Shown: in pieces, positions 16,809 through 39,323 of the stretch
Position numbering within the stretch: position 1 is the first letter of the stretch
Layout: every line of letters starts with the position of its first letter
NCBI GenBank assembly: GCA_012838635.1
Contig: DUOW01000011.1
Span: 4,882-68,881 of the forward strand
Direction of reading: 5' to 3'
Source: Acholeplasma sp.
GTDB taxonomy: Bacteria; Bacillota_I; Bacilli_A; ML615J-28; CAG-698
Length of the DNA: 64,000 bases
Position numbers and translations under genes: made by a program
Notes under the pieces: generated by a model
Database searches by the model: none
What the model saw: the letters and a program-made list of their open reading frames with translations, nothing else
Told to the model about the DNA's origin: nothing

Positions 16809-17075
16809 TTGACAAAAAAGCTGCATAATGATAAAATTAAACTATAAAGCGATGAATAGAAAAGTACTATAAAAATCATTTACAGAGATATGATGGTGGT
16901 GAGAATCATAATTATCTTTTATAGGAAAGAACACTAGGAGCTGTTAGAAGAAATTTAAGTAGAACTAACCGTAAACTTTGCGTTAAAAAGTCAAATGAGT
17001 ATTGCGTATTTTATACGAACTAAGGTGGTACCGCGGAAATTTTTCGTCCTTAAATTAATTTTTTAAGGACTTTTT
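16809..17075 (+). promoter_or_regulatory. Promoter (TTGACA-17-TAAAAT) plus T-box riboswitch leader of asnS
   Basis: -35 TTGACA at 16809..16814 and -10 TAAAAT at 16832..16837. The conserved T-box sequence AAGGTGGTACCGCG is at 17022..17036. The terminator hairpin CGTCCTTAAATTAATTTTTTAAGGAC plus UUUUU is at 17045..17075. A possible specifier loop, GAAAGAACACUAG, contains the Asn codon AAC. Confidence 0.75.
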
Positions 17076-17096: not shown

Positions 17097-18479
17097 ATGG
17101 ATTTATATTTACTAGACAAAAACTATAAACAACTAGAAAACAAAGAAATTACGGTTGAAGGTTGGGTAAGGTCAAACAGAGATCAAAAAGAATTTGGTTT
17201 TATTGCTTTATCTGATGGAACAACTCTAGGAACTTTGCAACTTGTTTATGATAACAAACTAGAAAATTTTAGTGAAGTATCAAAAATCAGAATTGGCTCA
17301 AGTATTACCGCTAAAGGAATAGTTGTTTTAACACCTAATGCAAAACAACTATATGAACTTAAAGTTACAAAATTAAAGTTAATTGGTGACTCTCCCGAAG
17401 ATTACCCAATCCAACCAAAAAGACATTCACGCGAGTTTTTAAGAGAACAAGCTTATTTAAGACCGAGAACTAATTTATTTAATGCTGTCTTTAGAGTAAG
17501 AAGCGTCCTTGCTTATGCAATTCATAATTACTTCTACGAAAACAGATTTGTCTACTTACATTCACCAATCATTACCGCAAGCGATGCAGAAGGTGCTGGA
17601 GATATGTTCCAAGTAACAACTTTAGATTTAGACAATTTACCAAAAACAAAAGACAAAAAAGTCGATTATTCTCAAGACTTCTTTAAAAAAGCAGCTCATC
17701 TAACTGTATCAGGACAACTTGAAGCTGAAACGTTTGCCACTGCATTTAAGAAAGTTTATACTTTCGGGCCAACATTTAGAGCAGAAAACTCCAACACACA
17801 ACGCCATGCTTCAGAGTTTTGGATGATTGAACCAGAAATTTGCTTTGCGGACTTAAACGATGATATGGCTTTAATTGAAGATCTTTTAAAATATGTAATT
17901 AGATATGTTTTAAAACATGCTAAAGAAGAAATGGACTTCTTTGATAAGTTTGTTGCTAAAGGTAAAATCAAAGAATTAGAAGCTTTCCTTGATTCAAAAA
18001 TTGCTGTTTGTACACATAAAAATGCAATTAAAATCATGAAAGAATCTGATCATAAATTTACAGAAAAACCTGAATATGGAAAAGACCTAGCAACAGAACA
18101 CGAAAAATACTTAACTGATATTCATTTTAAAGGCCCAGTATTTGTAATTGATTGGCCAAAAGATATCAAAGCATTCTATATGAGACTAAACGAAGATGGC
18201 GAAACAGTAGCAGCTGTAGACTTACTAGTTCCTGGTTGTGGTGAATTAGTCGGTGGAAGCCAAAGAGAAGAACGTTATGACTTACTAGAAAAACGTATGA
18301 AAGAAATGAACGTTCCTGTTGATGAAATGCAGTGGTATCTAAACTTAAGAAAATACGGTACTGTAAAACATGCAGGATTTGGTATTGGATTTGAAAGATT
18401 AGTGATGTATGTTACTGGTATTGAAAACATTAGAGATGTTTTACCATATCCAAGAACACCAGGAAATTGCGAATATTAA
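17097..18479 (+). CDS. asnS: Asparagine--tRNA ligase
   Basis: An N-terminal OB anticodon-binding domain and the class IIb core motifs (FRAE...GGSQRE...GFGIGFERL). 460 aa with an AsnS-like C-terminus. Confidence 0.85.
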   Translation: MDLYLLDKNYKQLENKEITVEGWVRSNRDQKEFGFIALSDGTTLGTLQLVYDNKLENFSEVSKIRIGSSITAKGIVVLTPNAKQLYELKVTKLKLIGDSPEDYPIQPKRHSREFLREQAYLRPRTNLFNAVFRVRSVLAYAIHNYFYENRFVYLHSPIITASDAEGAGDMFQVTTLDLDNLPKTKDKKVDYSQDFFKKAAHLTVSGQLEAETFATAFKKVYTFGPTFRAENSNTQRHASEFWMIEPEICFADLNDDMALIEDLLKYVIRYVLKHAKEEMDFFDKFVAKGKIKELEAFLDSKIAVCTHKNAIKIMKESDHKFTEKPEYGKDLATEHEKYLTDIHFKGPVFVIDWPKDIKAFYMRLNEDGETVAAVDLLVPGCGELVGGSQREERYDLLEKRMKEMNVPVDEMQWYLNLRKYGTVKHAGFGIGFERLVMYVTGIENIRDVLPYPRTPGNCEY

Positions 18480-27091: not shown

Positions 27092-27784
27092 ATGGAAAAA
27101 TTTTTACAAGAAAAGTACGAAGCTTTTAAAAAGCTTGCTGCTGAACGCTTTTCATACGATAAGATTGATTTAGAGTTTATTGTAGATTTGGTTTACAATT
27201 CACTTACTTTTGAAAGAAGAGTAGTTACTAGAGAAGATATCAAAAATATTTTGTCAGGTAAACACGAAAACTATGATGAAAATTTGGTAACTACTGCTGA
27301 AAATCATCGAAAAGCATTTTTGTTTATGGCGGATTTAGCTAAAAGAGGTGAACCACTTACAGAATCAAAATTAAAAGATTGCCATTCTATTTTAATGGAT
27401 GAGCACGGGGGAATGTATAGAACTTTTAATATTTCGATTCAAGGATCACAACATACTCCACCACCACACTACAAAATTTATGCTCGTATTGATGAATATT
27501 TTGAAGTTTTAAGAGGAGACGATCTTCCTATCAATAAAATTGCTTATAGTCACTTACAACTTGCAAAAATCCATCCCTTTTTAGATGGTAACGGAAGACT
27601 TGCTCGTCTAGTATTAAACTACTATATGTTGGTTTCTGGACTTGCTCCTATCATTATTCCTTCTGCAGATAAAGAAAAATATTTTCAATGCTTAGAAGAC
27701 TATAAAGTAAAAAAGACTACCCTTACTTTTATAAATTATTTAATTCAATTAGAAGAAGTTTCATTTGAAAAATACTTTAAATAA
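27092..27784 (+). CDS. Fic family protein (AMPylase), putative class II with N-terminal inhibitory motif
   Basis: Fic motif HPFLDGNGRLARL. An upstream SGKHEN segment fits the (S/T)xxxE(G/N) inhibitory-helix motif. 230 aa. No adjacent antitoxin ORF. Confidence 0.8.
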   Translation: MEKFLQEKYEAFKKLAAERFSYDKIDLEFIVDLVYNSLTFERRVVTREDIKNILSGKHENYDENLVTTAENHRKAFLFMADLAKRGEPLTESKLKDCHSILMDEHGGMYRTFNISIQGSQHTPPPHYKIYARIDEYFEVLRGDDLPINKIAYSHLQLAKIHPFLDGNGRLARLVLNYYMLVSGLAPIIIPSADKEKYFQCLEDYKVKKTTLTFINYLIQLEEVSFEKYFK

Positions 27785-32616: not shown

Positions 32617-32817
32617 GAAACCACCTCGTTATTCATTATATCATTTTTTTTGCTTTTTTCAATCTTTATAATTAACATTTCCACATTGATAAATTGTTTA
32701 TTCTTTATTAAAAAGTTTTCCTTGCTTTTTACACTGTGGAAAAGTAGATAAAAATTATTTAATTTTTATGTTTATTATTCTTTCTTTTTGTGGTATCATA
32801 TATGGGAGGAGTTCAGT
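32617..32817. promoter_or_regulatory. oriC part 1: DnaA-box cluster and dnaA promoter region
   Basis: ATTTCCACA, TTTTACACT and TGTGGAAAA (the reverse complement of TTTTCCACA) lie within 170 bp upstream of dnaA. Gene-strand bias switches here. Confidence 0.55.
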
Positions 32818-34209
32818 ATGAGTAATTTAGATATGGAAAATGCTTTAAACATTTGGCAAAAGACGCTCGAGCATTTAAAAACTGAAATAGATGACATTTC
32901 TTATAATGATTTGTTTTCTAAAACAAAAGAAGTTTTTAAAGTTAAAGATAGTACAATCTGGATTATCGTTGATAGTACTTTAACAAAATTTAGAATTGAT
33001 AAATTTTATAAAAATAGTATTAACGATTTTGCTTTAAATAATTTTGGTTGTCATTTTACTTTCATTGAATGTAAAGAAGCAGAAGAACAAAAAAGTAAAG
33101 TAGATTTAGTAAATACTACACAAACAGATATCGAAAACAGCAAAAAACCAAGATCTTTGCTCCCTGAATATTCTTTCGACAATTTCGTTATTGGAGAAAG
33201 CAATCGTTTTGCTTTTCTAGCAGCAACTAAAGTAGCTAACGATCCTGTACCAGTTTTAAACCCACTATATATCTTTGGTGGTGTTGGTTTAGGAAAAACG
33301 CATCTTATGTTTGCGGTAGGTAACGAAATCTTGCAATTTAAACCAGAAACAAATGTTGTTTACACAACAGCACAACAATATGCTCAAGATTACTTTACAG
33401 CTTCTAGTAGTAAAGATCCTAAAGCTTTTCAAAAGTTTTATGATTATTATCAATCAGCTGATGTCTTGTTAGTTGATGATATTCAGTTCTTAGAACAAAA
33501 AACAAAAACACAAGAAGAGTTTTTTAAATTATTTGAGCTTTTATATACTGAAAAGAAAAAAATGGTTGTTACATCAGATAGACCAGCTAATCAACTTCAA
33601 AACTTTATGGACAGGTTAAAGAGCAGATTAAGCTATGGTTTAGCTGTAGATATTAAAAAACCAGATAAAAACTTAAGATTAGGTATCTTACAAAAGAAAC
33701 TTCCAACTCATATCCCTAATCCAGAAGATGTTCCGATTGAAGCGTTAGAATTAATTGCTGAAATTTACGAAGATCGCAACGTTAGAGAATTAGAAGGTGC
33801 TTTGAGTAGATATATTTGGTATTGTGTGTCGGCTAATCTTCCTTTCACAAAAGAAAATGTTTATCCAATTTTAGAACCGTTAGTTAAAGGTATGGGTAAA
33901 GAAGGAGCTCCGGCCGACGTTAAGGTAAGAGATATAAAAGAATTGGTAGCTAGTTATTATCAAGTTTCGGTTTCTGAATTAGAATCTGAATCAAGAAAAG
34001 CAAAAATTGTTTTCGCAAGACAAATGGCTATTTATTTAATTAGAACTCTTTATGACTTACCATTAAAACAAATAGGTAGTTATTTCGGAAATAGAGATCA
34101 TGCCACAGTATCTTATTCAATCGATAAAATTGAAAAAGATATGAAGCAAAATAAAGGCATAAAACAAGATATTATATATCTAACTCATAAAATTCAAGGT
34201 GAAAAATAA
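32818..34209 (+). CDS. dnaA: Chromosomal replication initiator DnaA
   Basis: AAA+ Walker A GGVGLGKTHL, box VII, and a C-terminal DNA-binding helix (SRKAKIVFARQMAIYL...GNRDHATV). The start was set at the ATG at 32818, which has a GGGAGG RBS. Confidence 0.95.
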   Translation: MSNLDMENALNIWQKTLEHLKTEIDDISYNDLFSKTKEVFKVKDSTIWIIVDSTLTKFRIDKFYKNSINDFALNNFGCHFTFIECKEAEEQKSKVDLVNTTQTDIENSKKPRSLLPEYSFDNFVIGESNRFAFLAATKVANDPVPVLNPLYIFGGVGLGKTHLMFAVGNEILQFKPETNVVYTTAQQYAQDYFTASSSKDPKAFQKFYDYYQSADVLLVDDIQFLEQKTKTQEEFFKLFELLYTEKKKMVVTSDRPANQLQNFMDRLKSRLSYGLAVDIKKPDKNLRLGILQKKLPTHIPNPEDVPIEALELIAEIYEDRNVRELEGALSRYIWYCVSANLPFTKENVYPILEPLVKGMGKEGAPADVKVRDIKELVASYYQVSVSELESESRKAKIVFARQMAIYLIRTLYDLPLKQIGSYFGNRDHATVSYSIDKIEKDMKQNKGIKQDIIYLTHKIQGEK

Positions 34210-34281
34210 AAGTTATTAACATTTCCACATATGCTAATAATAATAAAAAAATAAATATAAATATAAAAGGAGAAATAAATT
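34210..34281. promoter_or_regulatory. oriC part 2: dnaA-dnaN intergenic DnaA box plus AT-rich unwinding element
   Basis: ATTTCCACA followed by AATAATAATAAAAAAATAAATATAAATATAAAA. Confidence 0.5.
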
Positions 34282-35409
34282 ATGAATGTTACAATTAACA
34301 GAGATTTATTGTTAGAGAACTTAACTAACGTAAGTAGAGCTCTATCAACAAAAACACCAATGCCGGTGCTTACTGGAATCAAATTCGAAATCACAAAAAA
34401 CAAAATGTACTTAACAGCTTCAAATAACGAAATATCAATTCAAGCACAACTAAACGAAGGAAACAAACTAAAGCTTGAAGGAGAAGGAAGTTTTGTTGTA
34501 CCAGGCAAAATATTAAGTGATATTATTAGAAAACTAGATGCAAACGAAGTTCAATTCAAAGTTGTAGAAGATAATGTAATTAAAATTTATGCTAATAGAA
34601 GCGACTTTACTTTAAATGCATTAGAAAAGGATAACTTTCCGTTAATCTCATTTGCTGAATCAAACACATTTATTAAATTAGACATTGGAACATTAAAACA
34701 AATTATTAGAAAAACAACATTTGCTACATCTTTATCAGAATCAAGAGCTATTCTTACTGGTGTTTGCTTAAACTTATCTAACAATAAATTAGAAGCTATC
34801 TCTACGGACAGCTTTAGATTAGCAAAGATATATTTAAATGTTAACGAAGAACTACCAGAATTATCTGTAGTAATCCCTTCAAAAAGCTTAGACGAACTAA
34901 ACAAAATTATTATTGACGACAATGAGAACGATATTGAATTACACTTCTCACCAACAAAGATCCTATTTAAGTATAAGAACTTGTTATTCCAATCAAGATT
35001 AATTGATGGCGTTTATCCAAATACATCTAGTTTAATTCCAACTGAATTCTTAACAAGTATCAAGTTTAATAAAACAGAACTTATTAAAACTATTGATTTA
35101 ATGTCGCTATTTACTAACATTGAATCATCAAACATTATTCAATTACAACTAAACCCAGACAAAACAGTTGAAATCAAATCAACAACAAGTGAAATTGGCG
35201 AAGGTAAAGAAGAACTAATTCCATTAGAGTGTTCTAATCCTGTTTCATTTAAGATAGCTTTTAGCGCTAAATACTTCTTAGAAGCTGTTAGATCGTTTGA
35301 TTCTTCTGAAATAGTTGTTCATTTTACTGGCGAAATCAAACCATTTATCGTTACTGGTGAATATGATGTTAACTTAACTCAATTAATTCTACCAGTAAGA
35401 GTATCTTAA
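34282..35409 (+). CDS. dnaN: DNA polymerase III beta sliding clamp
   Basis: 375 aa, three-domain clamp. Begins MNVTINRDLL..., typical of DnaN. Synteny with dnaA. Confidence 0.9.
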   Translation: MNVTINRDLLLENLTNVSRALSTKTPMPVLTGIKFEITKNKMYLTASNNEISIQAQLNEGNKLKLEGEGSFVVPGKILSDIIRKLDANEVQFKVVEDNVIKIYANRSDFTLNALEKDNFPLISFAESNTFIKLDIGTLKQIIRKTTFATSLSESRAILTGVCLNLSNNKLEAISTDSFRLAKIYLNVNEELPELSVVIPSKSLDELNKIIIDDNENDIELHFSPTKILFKYKNLLFQSRLIDGVYPNTSSLIPTEFLTSIKFNKTELIKTIDLMSLFTNIESSNIIQLQLNPDKTVEIKSTTSEIGEGKEELIPLECSNPVSFKIAFSAKYFLEAVRSFDSSEIVVHFTGEIKPFIVTGEYDVNLTQLILPVRVS

Positions 35410-35424
35410 TTAACATACAATAAA

Positions 35425-35452
35425 AAAAGAGGTGTAATAACCTCTTTTATTT
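35425..35452. terminator. Bidirectional terminator between dnaN and parA-like gene
   Basis: Hairpin AAGAGGT-GTAATAA-CCTCTT flanked by an A-run and a T-run. Confidence 0.55.
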
Positions 35453-36331
35453 TTTCTTTTTTAAGTTTAAAACAACTTTTTCTTGCGGCTGTTCTTGAGC
35501 AGCTGCTTTTTTACTTAATTTCTCTTCATGTTCGTCTACACTTTTAAAGATCCCTAACAATTCTTTTCTTACTTTTAAAGTTTCGGTCAAATCATAACGA
35601 GTTTCAAATACTTCATTTTTGTCAAAAGGAGTCTTACCTTGAGTTTGAATGTTTTGAATTGTTGATTTCTCTGAAAAATAAGGCAATATTAAAGCGTTTA
35701 ATCCCATTGTTCTTGAAAATTCTTTGGCTTGTTTATCCAATGTTTGTAAAGAATCTTTAGGAGCTCTTCTATTTGCAATAAATTTATTAGGTAAAATGTA
35801 TTGAATCTTACTAATAGGAATGTCTTGGTCCACAAAAAACTGGATAGTATTAATAAACCCATCAATCCCCATACTATCTAAACTAATAATTAAGATAATT
35901 CTATCACTATAATCCAACAAAACTTCTGTAGCTCTACAGCTAGAAGGTGGGAAATCAAGCAAAACATAGTCGAAATTCTCGTTATAGACATCAATAATGT
36001 TAAATAAGATCTTTTCTGTAGGTCTTTTTGTAATTAATTCTGTAGATAAAGCATCTGTATTTAAAGTTTTTATTAAATATAAGTTTTCTCTTACTTCATG
36101 TAATACTTCATCAAACGTCCTTTGTCCTACCATTAGGTACTCTAAATAGTCATCATTTCTTGCTGTAACAAGATCTTGGCGTCCAAAAAGAGTAAAAATA
36201 CTATTTTGATCATCAATACTGATGACTAAAACAGTCTTTTTCTTTACTTCTGTTAAATAATGAGCTAAATAACCAATAAACGTTGTTTTACCAACGCCAC
36301 CTTTCTTACAATATGTCGAAATAATGGCCAT
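35447..36331 (-). CDS. parA: ParA/Soj-type partition ATPase (deviant Walker A)
   Basis: KGGVGKTT deviant Walker A at residues 9 to 16. 294 aa. Encoded immediately after a small RHH gene and next to iteron arrays. No parB is present in the window. Confidence 0.8.
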   Translation of the reverse strand: MAIISTYCKKGGVGKTTFIGYLAHYLTEVKKKTVLVISIDDQNSIFTLFGRQDLVTARNDDYLEYLMVGQRTFDEVLHEVRENLYLIKTLNTDALSTELITKRPTEKILFNIIDVYNENFDYVLLDFPPSSCRATEVLLDYSDRIILIISLDSMGIDGFINTIQFFVDQDIPISKIQYILPNKFIANRRAPKDSLQTLDKQAKEFSRTMGLNALILPYFSEKSTIQNIQTQGKTPFDKNEVFETRYDLTETLKVRKELLGIFKSVDEHEEKLSKKAAAQEQPQEKVVLNLKKKK

Positions 36332-36334
36332 ATT

Positions 36335-36679
36335 CTATAATTTAACTCCCATTAATCGTAAATGACGTATAACAGCCTCTTCTACAAACTCAGAAAAAGT
36401 AACTCCTTGCTTCATTGCAGCTATTTTTGCCTCAGATCTAACAATGTGAGCCATAGTTGCAGTGTATTTTACCTTTTTATTCCCTCCATATACGTCATAA
36501 ATCTCATCTTTTTTCGATTTAGTAGGGGTTACTGTCCTAGAAACAGGTTCTTTTTGATAAACTACAGGTTCTTCAACAACTGGTTCTGATAGAGTCTCTT
36601 CCTTAATAATTTCTGCTACATTTACAGTTTTATTTAGGCCCGATAAAGGACTTTGGCCTCTTTTTTTAATTTTTCCCAT
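36335..36679 (-). CDS. Small ribbon-helix-helix DNA-binding protein (ParG/omega-like centromere-binding candidate)
   Basis: 114 aa. A disordered basic N-terminus. The C-terminal KVKYTATMAHIVRSEAKIAAMKQGVTFSEFVEEAVIRHL fits a beta-strand, helix, helix RHH fold. Separated from parA by a 3-nt gap. Confidence 0.6.
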   Translation of the reverse strand: MGKIKKRGQSPLSGLNKTVNVAEIIKEETLSEPVVEEPVVYQKEPVSRTVTPTKSKKDEIYDVYGGNKKVKYTATMAHIVRSEAKIAAMKQGVTFSEFVEEAVIRHLRLMGVKL

Positions 36680-36720
36680 CTTTTTTCACTCCTTTTTCTT
36701 ATAAAAATCACAATTTTAGT

Positions 36721-36840
36721 CAAAAACCATAAAAACATTTATACATTTTTACACAAAACCTTATAACCATTTATATGTTTTTACATTTATACACAAAACC
36801 ACATTTACATTTATACACTTATACATAAAAACATACTTTT
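36721..36840. repeat. Promoter-proximal iteron array: 4 to 5 direct copies of CATTTATACA(C/T) with two ACACAAAACC half-sites
   Basis: Copies at 36736, 36768 (variant), 36784, 36808 and 36818 (extended to TATACATAAAAACATAC). They sit 40 to 160 bp upstream of the RHH-parA operon start. Confidence 0.7.
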
Positions 36841-37835
36841 TTAAGGTCATTTTTTAGGCGATTTTAAGCTTTTAAAACTCGTTTTTTCCTGAATTTTAAA
36901 AATATTGCTTCCTAAAAAAGGGAAATATTTTTTAGCGCTCAAAAAAACATTTTGAATTTAAATTAAGCTAGATTTTTGACCCCCAGTAAAGTATTTATTA
37001 AGGCCGATTCTTAAAAACGCTTAAAAACGAAATTTGAAAGGTTGCAAAAAACTGTTTTTTGCCATATACAGGGGTTTTAAGGCCTTTTAAAAAGACAAAT
37101 ATACATAAAACCATACAGCTGTATATATGGTTTTATGGGTATACATAAAACCATATTAAGAAATGTTGGTTAAAAACAAATTTTTTGTTTTTTTTGGTCT
37201 TTTATTGAGACTATTATACACAATAAAAACATAAAAAGCAATACATAAAGCCATAAAAATGCAAAAAAAAGCACTTTTTATAGCTTTAAAAACGAGTATT
37301 TTCCGGATCTGACGTTTAATACAACAAAAACAACCAAATAAGAGTTGAAATAAGGCTAAAATCAGAAGAAAAACAATATAAATAAAGCTAAAAAGTTAGA
37401 AAATACGCCAGTTTAAGCGTTAGAAAAACCATAAAACTGAAAAACAAACATGATTTTGGCCTTAATAATAAAGAAAACATAATATTTTCAGCGTTTTAAG
37501 GTCCATTTATACATAAAACCATACACAAAAGAGCATTAAATTATGCTTTTGGAAGTAAAAAAACAGGTTTATATGTAAAATGGTTAATAAAAGGGTAAAA
37601 TTATATATTTAATGACCTTAAAATAAGAAATATACATAAAACCATACTCAGAAAAGCTAAAATGTTATGCTTTTTAAAGACGTAAAATAAGAATTTAACA
37701 TAATACACACAATTAATGGACGATAATTTACTTTTTTCAAGAATAAAACATCTTTATATCCAAAATCATACCCAACGAAAGATCCCAAACACCAATTAAC
37801 AACAACAAAAACGAAGTTTATACATAAAACCATAC
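36821..37835. repeat. Dispersed 17-mer family TATACATAAAACCATAC (5 exact + 2 degenerate copies) in a 1.5-kb non-coding island
   Basis: Exact copies at 37100..37116, 37140..37155, 37508..37524, 37631..37647 and 37819..37835. Degenerate copies at 36821..36836 and 37241..37255. An inverted copy lies at 37126..37140. No ORF of 60 aa or longer spans the region. Confidence 0.8.
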
Positions 37836-38237
37836 AGCTTCTTTTAAATAAAAGTAGGAAAACTAAGCTTTAATACAAGATTTGTTTCACTTATTGGGTT
37901 CTATATTCTATATTATTCCTTTTAATGGTTAAATTATCTATTAATTATTCATAAAAGCAGTTATAAACCATCTTTTTGTGTTTTATATTTCAACTTAAAC
38001 CATTTTTAAATAAAAAAGGCAAATAAAACAAGATATTGTTAAAAAACGCAACTAAAACGAAAATAAACGAGTTTTTTGGCTCAATAAATATAATTGGAAA
38101 GATTTTAATAAAAGTCTTTAAAAATAAGCGAAAATGTGGTATAATATCTATGAATTATTCAGGAATTAAAAATGGTTCAAAAGTTTATTTAATAGACCGT
38201 TTTATCCGTTTATTTATAAAAGATAATGGAGAAAGAG

Positions 38238-39323
38238 ATGTTTTATATTGAAAAGCTGAAATTAACCAACTTTCGTTGTTATAAAGATAAAAGAATAAAT
38301 TTTAAACCTCATGTTAATATAATAGTAGGGGAAAATGCTGTTGGTAAAACATCTTTAGTGGAAGCTATTTATTGTCTAGGACTTACCAAATCATACAAAG
38401 CAAGCAAAGATTCTTTTTTAATTAAACATGATCAACCTTTTTATGTGTTAGAAGGTGAATTTGTCAATCAAGAAAGAAAGCACAATGTTTTGTTATCATA
38501 TGAAATAGATAAATCAAGAAAAAGATTATTAGTTGATAATAATGTGGTTAAAAAGTTAAGTGATTATATAGGGACATTTAAAGTTGTTATGTTTTCTCCT
38601 GATGATTCTGAACTAATAAAAGGCTATTCTCCTCAACGAAGAAGATTCTTAGATATTTATTTAGGCCAAATTAATAATAAGTATTTAAAAGATTTATCTA
38701 ATTACAACAAAGTGTTAAAAAATAGAAATGAGTTATTAAAGCAAACTAATCAAAGCGAGCAAGATTTAGAACTCTTAAAGATCTATTCCGAAGCTTTAGT
38801 AAAATACGGCAAAAACCTAATTATTGAAAGAGAAAAGTTTATTAATATGCTTAATCCAGAAGTGGCAAAAATTAGTTTAGCTATCTCTAATGGAGAAGAA
38901 AAAACTGAACTAAAATATATGCCAAATGTGGAAAACGAAGAATTTATGTTGAAAACTTTTCGACAACTTAAAAAAGATTTGTATTTACAAACAACAGGGC
39001 TTGGACCTCATAAAGATGACTTCTTATTTACAATAAAAGGGGTTGATGCAGCATCGTTTGCTTCACAAGGCCAACAAAGAACATCTAGTATAGCTTTAAA
39101 GTTAGGTCTAGCTAGTTTGTTTGATAAATTGGGTTTAGATAATATCGTAATTTTAGATGATGTTTTTAGCGAATTAGATAAAGAAAGACAAAACGAGATT
39201 ATGAAACTCTTTAAAAACAATAAACAAATATTTATTACAACCACAACAATCAAGGCAATTAATGAAGAATTGCTTGAAAGTAGTAATGTTATTAAAATAG
39301 AAAGGGAAGAAAAAGATGAGTGA
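38238..39323 (+). CDS. recF: DNA replication and repair protein RecF
   Basis: Walker A GENAVGKTS. SMC-like ABC fold. Start at the ATG at 38238 (RBS GGAGAAAGAG). An extended -10 TGTGGTATAAT lies at 38125..38135. Confidence 0.9.
   Translation: MFYIEKLKLTNFRCYKDKRINFKPHVNIIVGENAVGKTSLVEAIYCLGLTKSYKASKDSFLIKHDQPFYVLEGEFVNQERKHNVLLSYEIDKSRKRLLVDNNVVKKLSDYIGTFKVVMFSPDDSELIKGYSPQRRRFLDIYLGQINNKYLKDLSNYNKVLKNRNELLKQTNQSEQDLELLKIYSEALVKYGKNLIIEREKFINMLNPEVAKISLAISNGEEKTELKYMPNVENEEFMLKTFRQLKKDLYLQTTGLGPHKDDFLFTIKGVDAASFASQGQQRTSSIALKLGLASLFDKLGLDNIVILDDVFSELDKERQNEIMKLFKNNKQIFITTTTIKAINEELLESSNVIKIEREEKDE

Follow-up and report, generated by a model that had tools for sequence, protein, structure and literature searches.

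Phased 8-bp boxes beside an RHH-ParA operon at an Acholeplasma replication origin: a candidate chromosomal centromere

Contig DUOW01000011.1 of Acholeplasma sp. contains a recurring 17-mer in a gene-free tract near dnaA, within the 64-kb stretch of DNA analysed here (the window, to whose positions all coordinates refer). An earlier reading made from the letters alone (hereafter the sequence-only reading) had likened these repeats either to plasmid replication iterons or to centromere arrays. The second likeness, with the neighbouring ribbon-helix-helix (RHH) protein as the reader of the array, is now the better supported, through the phasing of the repeats, the adjoining operon for the RHH protein and a ParA-family ATPase, and the recurrence of both in 11 species. 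The tract is best read as the operator and centromere arrays of a type-Ib-like (ParG/parH-like) partition system that lies beside oriC and would be served by these two proteins.

The tract lies among the following genes and features:

Upstream of dnaA: mnmE, jag, yidC and rnpA.
32788-34209: dnaA.
34210..34281, plus strand: the dnaA-dnaN gap; a DnaA box, ATTTCCACA, precedes a GC cluster, TAATAATAATAA trios and an AT-rich stretch.
34282-35409: dnaN.
35447..36331, minus strand: gene for a ParA-family ATPase of 294 aa.
36335..36679, minus strand: gene for an RHH protein of 114 aa, the candidate centromere-binding protein.
36680-38225: gene-free tract of 1.55 kb, with no credible open reading frame (ORF).
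Beyond the tract: recF, gyrB, gyrA and serS.

This set of origin genes, together with a minimum of cumulative GC skew at the repeat tract, places the window in the chromosomal origin region of an Acholeplasma-like bacterium; DnaN of the nearest public relative is 96% identical to that of the window. The host is low in GC (about 30%), and the repeat tract is AT-rich (24% GC). Only 3 nt separate the stop codon of the RHH gene from the start of the ParA gene, so the two form an operon. The repeats do lie in non-coding DNA, as had been claimed: the tract holds only short, unconserved ORFs, several of which begin MVLCI. The reverse complement of the 17-mer reads ATG GTT TTA TGT ATA, that is MVLCI, which accounts for several short ORFs on the minus strand. 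A coding reading was rejected, since these ORFs lack a ribosome-binding site, are unconserved and gave no Pfam match among those tested.

A search of the window with the 17-mer TATACATAAAACCATAC, allowing up to three mismatches, returned nine matches, whereas dinucleotide-preserving shuffles averaged 0.51 and never exceeded 2. All nine are confined to 36788-37835. Four copies are exact (37100, 37508, 37631, and 37819), and the copy at 37140 carries one mismatch, its final C being T. An inverted copy (37125-37141, minus strand) has three mismatches; degenerate copies lie at 36820 (one mismatch), 36788, and 37240 (three each). The sequence-only reading had thus seen real repeats and counted one exact copy too many, five instead of four; its interval, 37099-37835, does contain repeats, but the family runs further left, to the copies at 36788 and 36820. 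The irregular start-to-start spacing from 37100 through 37140, 37508, 37631 and 37819 is borne out at 40, 368, 123 and 188 bp, with the last value corrected from 187. Irregular spacing, one inverted copy and a repeat of only 17 bp also uphold the view that this is not a CRISPR array, and two smaller details stand as described: the perfect palindrome ATACAGCTGTAT at the junction of the cluster (37113-37124), and AGCT directly after the copies at 37100 and 37819. That the 17-mer belongs to this locus alone could be verified in part: there are zero copies in the remaining 62.5 kb of the window.

The repeat is built from a unit smaller than the 17-mer itself. With CATA at positions 5-8 and again at 13-16, the 17-mer amounts to two consecutive 8-bp units, each an A/C-CAT core with a 4-bp AT-rich spacer. 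This pair of phased boxes had been overlooked when the 17-mer was taken as the basic repeat, as had a 14-unit array that abuts the RHH gene outside the interval then given. Among same-strand [AC]CAT pairs within 48 bp in the window, 65% are separated by multiples of 8 bp, against an expected 12.5%. In total there are about 30 boxes, in seven or more clusters spread over 1.1 kb, arranged as follows:

36723..36836, plus strand: proximal array of 14 contiguous 8-bp units (NNNN-A/C-CA-T/C), directly upstream of the ribosome-binding site of the RHH gene.
36837..37098, no strand assigned: spacer between proximal and distal arrays, 260-400 bp in nine species.
37099..37156, plus strand: direct-inverted-direct cluster, its seven 8-bp units sharing a register (two direct, a central ACAGCTGT, two inverted, two direct).
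37213..37241, minus strand: sigma-70 promoter toward the RHH-ParA operon, predicted from sequence (-35 TTGCTT at 37241..37236, 17-nt spacer, -10 TATAAT at 37218..37213).
37239..37256, plus strand: a degenerate pair of boxes, CAATACATAAAGCCATAA, which overlaps the predicted -35 element.
37499..37524, plus strand: distal site of three in-phase boxes, including the exact 17-mer 37508-37524; its position is unconserved in the sister species.
37630..37647, plus strand: distal site with the exact 17-mer 37631-37647; the sister copy has three mismatches.
37818..37835, plus strand: distal site with the exact 17-mer 37819-37835, lacking in the sister species and some 300 bp upstream of the recF promoter.

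The proximal array begins AAAACCAT AAAAACAT TTATACAT TTTTACAC, and Tandem Repeats Finder reports periods of 8, 32, and 40 within it. It is kept in the sister species and present in other species too, and is presumed to be both the operator and part of the centromere. Within the spacer that follows, a block at about 36930-37060 is highly conserved in the sister species, whose spacer is nearly the same as that of the window. Across nine species the alignment of the spacer shows patchy conservation and no usable RNA covariation; the patchily conserved features include AAATTTCGTTTT, TAATAAGTTTA, and G/C clusters followed by A-tracts such as GGTCAAAAAT. The direct-inverted-direct order of the next cluster is retained in the sister species (L092/L009). 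The AGCTG dyad emphasised by the sequence-only reading is not: AAACCCAT replaces ACAGCTGT even there, and only the arrangement survives. The predicted promoter would give the operon a leader of about 527 nt spanning cluster, spacer and proximal array, and TTGnnn-17-TATAAT recurs at the same position in five other species (L092, L010, L013, L196, and L197). The site that overlaps its -35 element is kept in the sister species as AATACATAAAACCATAA. At 37630..37647 the first base varies between strains.

The comparison set consisted of the window and 10 further species (Acholeplasmataceae and 'Bacilli' metagenome-assembled genomes), their contigs having been chosen by a homologue of the RHH protein or of ParA. 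Their ParA proteins are 48-83% identical to that of the window, and DnaA identity falls to about 45%. Gene order is the same in 11 of 11: dnaA-dnaN, ParA-RHH, a non-coding tract of 1.1-2.5 kb, and (yaaA)-recF-gyrB-gyrA. In every species compared, the RHH-ParA operon adjoins the arrays. Each of the 11 tracts contains the octamer ATACATAA 3-23 times, against 0.1-1.1 in shuffles; the flanks of the tracts have hardly any, and the other 62.5 kb of the window none. (Its depletion outside the tract, 0 against 4.6-6 expected, was set aside as a separate argument, since coding DNA avoids TAA stop codons in any case, which confounds the count.) Pairs of [AC]CAT fall in 8-bp phase in 50-91% of cases in 10 of the 11 species, and in 33% in the weakest, L015; the expectation is again 12.5%. 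The two-box consensus is ATACATAAATACATA or ATACATAAAACCATA, depending on the species, and the box shared across the family is (A)TACATAA.

Exact scans for the 17-mer through 596 Gb of public genomes and a metagenome collection gave 177 loci, mostly single chance matches in unrelated phyla. On Acholeplasma-like contigs every match lies inside the same dnaN-recF tract. The contigs so matched include two 'Bacilli' metagenome-assembled genomes whose ParA is only 48-49% identical, and DnaA identity falls to about 45% among the species matched. The 17-mer is thus conserved far beyond the surrounding proteins, which is what would be expected for the optimal site of a protein with an invariant DNA-reading strand.

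A second repeat class occurs in the same tract of two of the more distant species: tandem repeats of 31/96-bp period with the core GTTTTAATTTAAAA, at 4403-4576 in L194 and at about 1880-2150 in L048. The window has a single element resembling them, ATTTTGAATTTAAATTAAG (36951-36970).

Conservation at this depth bears on whether the repeats might be functionless, either debris of a mobile element or recent local duplications. Four exactly identical copies, and distal copies that are species-specific, are what such an origin might leave behind. Yet the same 17-mer stands in the same tract across the DnaA distance just given, enrichment and phasing recur in 11 of 11 species, and neither a transposase nor an integrase lies at the locus; debris is hardly a credible source.

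Individual sites come and go within the conserved cluster. In the sister species the proximal array, the direct-inverted-direct cluster and the 37240 site are all retained. At strain level, a comparison of nine sequences shows 25 variable columns, not enough to reveal constraint on the boxes. Turnover of sites inside a conserved cluster fits protein-binding arrays and does not suit an RNA gene. The tract could still be imagined as a structured noncoding RNA or a long regulatory leader, with the inverted repeat at 37104-37137, for example, as an attenuator hairpin behind the upstream promoter. Three points favour this: transcripts from the conserved predicted promoter would cross the cluster; on the minus strand, the 14-pair hairpin at 37137-37104, together with the T-rich run after it, has a terminator-like score; and the sister species keeps the spacer block. 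Against these points, copies occur in both orientations and change position between species; the inverted pair that would form the hairpin is found only in the window and its sister, other species having mostly direct repeats; and strain variants beside the distal copies break putative short stems with no compensation. No Rfam 15 model matches the tract at the gathering threshold (one snoRNA model reaches E=0.023, chance level), and the 8-bp phasing is a signature of DNA binding. The chance that the tract works as an RNA seems remote.

Position, in turn, raises the question of replication itself. The arrangement of DnaA boxes and DnaA-trios at which origins are unwound has been described for Bacillus subtilis and many other bacteria. 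The dnaA-dnaN gap of the window has this module, as do those of all six other species examined (L010, L013, and L194-L197): in order, DnaA boxes, a short GC cluster, TAATAATAA repeats and an AT-rich run. In the relatives the DnaA boxes are two in tandem, of the TTATCCAC type, at an 8-bp offset (TTATCCACTTATCCACA). This gap is the likely unwinding site, about 2.4-3.6 kb from the arrays. In the long tract DnaA boxes are few and inconsistently present across species; given the module in the gap, the repeat tract is therefore not itself the origin.

Might the repeats nonetheless be a replication element, as the iterons of a plasmid-type replicon that has integrated, or as degenerate DnaA boxes that add a second part to oriC or titrate DnaA as a cluster? 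The tract lies at the skew minimum and is AT-rich; TTATACACA (36787 and 37214) and TTTTACACA (36747) fit the relaxed DnaA consensus TTWTNCACA; and the true DnaA boxes of the gap are likewise tandem with an 8-bp offset. These three, however, are the only fits among about 30 units, and the family-wide box departs from the DnaA box TTATCCACA at positions 1, 2, and 8, in agreement with the earlier remark that the 17-mer differs from the boxes beside dnaA. With canonical boxes and trios in the gap, a DnaA-box cluster (part of oriC, or datA-like) was rejected. Nor do the iterons proposed by the sequence-only reading hold up: no Rep gene is present, the sites are irregularly spaced, the unwinding module sits in the dnaA-dnaN gap, and the locus is conserved vertically in the chromosomes of 11 species. 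A plasmid or phage origin of the locus was likewise rejected: tblastn with a member of the RHH family found no plasmid or phage relatives, and plasmid ParAs are less than 30% identical to that of the window. Taken together, a replication element is highly improbable.

The preferred reading, a partition locus, draws on the two proteins as well as on the DNA. Alignment with relatives divides the 114-aa protein into a basic N-terminal peptide, a disordered and variable linker, and a C-terminal RHH domain made of the strand KYTATM and helices 78-91 and 95-110. The strand is invariant across the aligned relatives. The N-terminal peptide has the consensus (P)FKKRxNP(L/F), with K6, R7, and P11 invariant in an otherwise disordered tail. 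As a single query the protein has no Pfam match; a profile of 55 family members matches the RHH protein SvtR/56B (PDB 2kel) at E=5.5e-8, and members match the Pfam families RHH_3, 56B_RHH, and RHH_10; Omega_Repress is matched only weakly, by 3 of 55 members (best E=0.03). In an AlphaFold2 model the C-terminal strand-helix-helix has a pLDDT (predicted local distance difference test) of about 95 and the N-terminus is disordered; the best fold matches are all RHH proteins (PutA, Arc, CopG, SvtR, ORF56, and antitoxins), with the weak E-values of a short domain. Clustered at 90% identity, the family falls into 467 groups, and at 50% into about 66. None of its cluster names is meaningful: one 90% cluster bears the Joint Genome Institute label 'uncharacterized protein YxeA', and a few others are 'hypothetical protein'.

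The residue before KYT(A/S)TM is V or I in the window, L092, L015, L048, and L194, where the second box is often CCAT, and D or E in L010, L013, L070, and L195-L197, which have mostly ACAT boxes. The trend is not clean, and it is phylogenetically confounded.

The partner is a ParA-family ATPase (ParA/MinD type) by several measures: Pfam AAA_31 (E=9.8e-23) and CbiA, and the PHROG family 'ParA-like partition protein' (E=5.8e-23). Its deviant Walker A motif, KGGVGKT, is at residues 10-16 of 294, so the protein has no N-terminal DNA-binding domain. The best-scoring named model is NCBIfam PrgP, at 46 bits against a cut-off of 400. The protein also has a C-terminal extension of about 30 residues ending in a run of lysines (…VVLNLKKKK), which is missing in most homologues (257-265 aa).

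From the boxes, the operon and the comparison we infer DNA binding by the RHH protein, autoregulation, stimulation of the ATPase, and a role in segregation. The 17-mers are probably high-affinity two-box sites for dimers of the neighbouring RHH protein, and the arrays probably serve a type-Ib partition system on the chromosome. In the proposed mechanism each 8-bp unit would take one RHH dimer, with neighbours binding cooperatively, and the 17-mer would be a high-affinity site for a dimer of dimers. The 14-unit array, and the sites that sandwich the predicted promoter upstream, would let the protein repress its own operon. The roughly 30 boxes would build a nucleoprotein partition complex near the unwinding site. 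The basic N-terminal tail (KKR) would stimulate the ATPase, and ParA bound to the nucleoid would move the complex so that sister origin regions separate, much as envisaged for type Ib (ParF/ParG/parH-like).

Part of this mechanism is shared with a simpler account, in which the arrays are operators only: they would autoregulate the operon and control neighbouring genes, and ParA would act otherwise, positioning other cargo or controlling DnaA as Soj does. Soj of B. subtilis regulates DnaA, and a place beside oriC would suit a regulator of that kind. RHH proteins, as the fold matches show, are classic repressors; the operon has the proximal array at its edge, and there are sites on both sides of the conserved predicted promoter. 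What makes a purely operator role unlikely is the amount of DNA involved, since about 30 boxes in at least seven clusters, scattered through 1.1 kb and in part lying beyond 1 kb from the gene, exceed what an operator needs, and also the conserved basic N-terminal tail, which is typical of centromere-binding proteins that activate ParA. The two accounts overlap in any case, operator and centromere roles coexisting in type Ib (PMC3130281).

Several observations weigh against a partition role. Of the three distal exact copies, those at 37508 and 37819 are missing from the sister species and the one at 37631 is degenerate there; their positions are not kept, and individual sites are therefore dispensable. 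The ATPase is distant from characterised partition ATPases (best PDB match HpSoj, E=1.7e-7), as its low identity to plasmid ParAs also indicates. The RHH gene precedes the ParA gene, the reverse of the usual parA-parB order, and the usual type-Ib context, a plasmid with parA then parB, is not the one found here, though that context is usual and not strictly defining. Motif counts cover the 64-kb window and the relatives, the source species itself being absent from the public collections scanned. Lastly, a canonical ParB could be encoded elsewhere in the genome. Within the 64-kb origin region the evidence points the other way: the ORFs scanned there include no gene for ParB (helix-turn-helix [HTH], ParBc), and matches to the 16-bp palindromic parS are at chance level, with at least three mismatches.

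A broader proposal is offered more tentatively, as a possibility somewhat short of an even chance: the Acholeplasmataceae and related 'Bacilli' may segregate their origins by a vertically inherited RHH protein and ParA, without ParB, with arrays of 8-bp boxes as the chromosomal centromere. If so, this would be the first case on a bacterial chromosome of a centromere read by an RHH protein in place of the HTH/CTPase ParB, and plasmid-type (Ib) partition machinery would be able to serve as, or replace, a chromosomal system. Its position beside a DnaA-trio unwinding site might couple the centromere to the initiation of replication, and the two-box 17-mer would offer experimenters a simple, defined centromere in wall-less bacteria with small genomes. 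The RHH family, with its many clusters and no curated name, is a ready target for annotation. A literature search of open papers (subscription-only ones lay outside it) returned no description of the RHH-ParA locus or its repeats.

Other features of the window lie to either side of the tract. A predicted recF promoter has an extended -10 element, TGTGGTATAAT, ending at 38145; the roughly 150 bp upstream of it (window 38000-38225) are well kept in the sister species and contain repeated AAAACG motifs. A 71-aa ORF at 38036-38251 has no Pfam match. The gene yaaA (S4_2), which precedes recF in other species, is absent from the entire window, and the usual mnmG-rsmG-noc-soj-spo0J block is absent beside mnmE. 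A Fic/DOC-domain gene (27092-27784, opposite strand) lies between mnmE and jag within an otherwise conserved origin-proximal block. A T-box leader (Rfam RF00230, 121 bits; 16843-17054) is found upstream of a 460-aa ORF (17097-18479).

How does the locus compare with known partition systems? Its proteins and DNA have three features of type Ib: a small Walker-type ParA with no N-terminal DNA-binding domain; an RHH partner with a flexible N-terminal tail; and arrays of short repeats by the operon (the 14-unit array and at least six further clusters). The closest likeness is to ParF-ParG-parH/OF of plasmid TP228, where the RHH protein ParG binds tetramer boxes, direct and inverted, with regular 4-bp AT-rich spacers, eight boxes forming the operator beside parFG and twelve the centromere parH further upstream (PMC3130281). 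Both systems pair a small Walker-type ParA with an RHH protein whose flexible tail includes a basic, arginine-finger-like motif (putatively activating in the present locus), and both have an 8-bp period, boxes in both orientations, a gene-adjacent array as operator and a distal array as centromere, the latter roles again putative in the present locus (PMC3130281). In contrast to TP228, the present locus is chromosomal, beside oriC and family-wide; its box is (A/C)CAT, not ACTC; the RHH gene comes before parA; and two-box units are dispersed over more than 1 kb, with a conserved spacer of 260-400 bp. Beyond the fold, no sequence relationship is detectable.

The delta/omega system of pSM19035, a type Ib system of Firmicutes, resembles it in other ways. 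There the RHH protein omega binds runs of contiguous short repeats, direct as well as inverted, that lie upstream of several promoters; working with a ParA-like ATPase, it both represses and binds the centromere (PMC4498918, PMC3074150). Unlike the arrangement here, that system has a heptad parS of 7-bp period, a plasmid location and separately transcribed genes.

A third likeness is to the plasmid cassettes RepB(PrgP)-RepC(PrgO) of pAD1/pCF10 and those of pXO2 type. Francia et al. reportedly found, in 2007, that RepC binds iterons. In these cassettes a ParA-like ATPase and a small partner are needed for stability, and sets of 8-bp repeats, direct and reverse, flank the genes (PMC1626470). They differ in being plasmid-borne and in placing parA before the small gene, and the PrgP score given above excludes the ParA of the window from that family.

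Among chromosomal systems, archaeal SegA-SegB likewise joins a ParA-type ATPase to a small, site-specific partner of RHH type with sites by the operon (PMC8682754, PMC12139799). Its host is archaeal, and its sites differ in sequence and organisation: a likeness without demonstrated homology. Canonical ParABS (Soj-Spo0J-parS) shares a ParA ATPase and centromere-like sites clustered by oriC, but its binder is the HTH/CTPase ParB and its site a 16-bp palindrome, neither of which was found in the 64-kb window. According to a review, the known centromere-binding proteins of bacterial chromosomes all belong to the HTH class (PMC5002424). Set beside all of these, the Acholeplasma locus would be new in its combination of features: a type-Ib-like system that is chromosomal, beside oriC and family-wide, with reversed gene order and putative binding sites dispersed over more than 1 kb.

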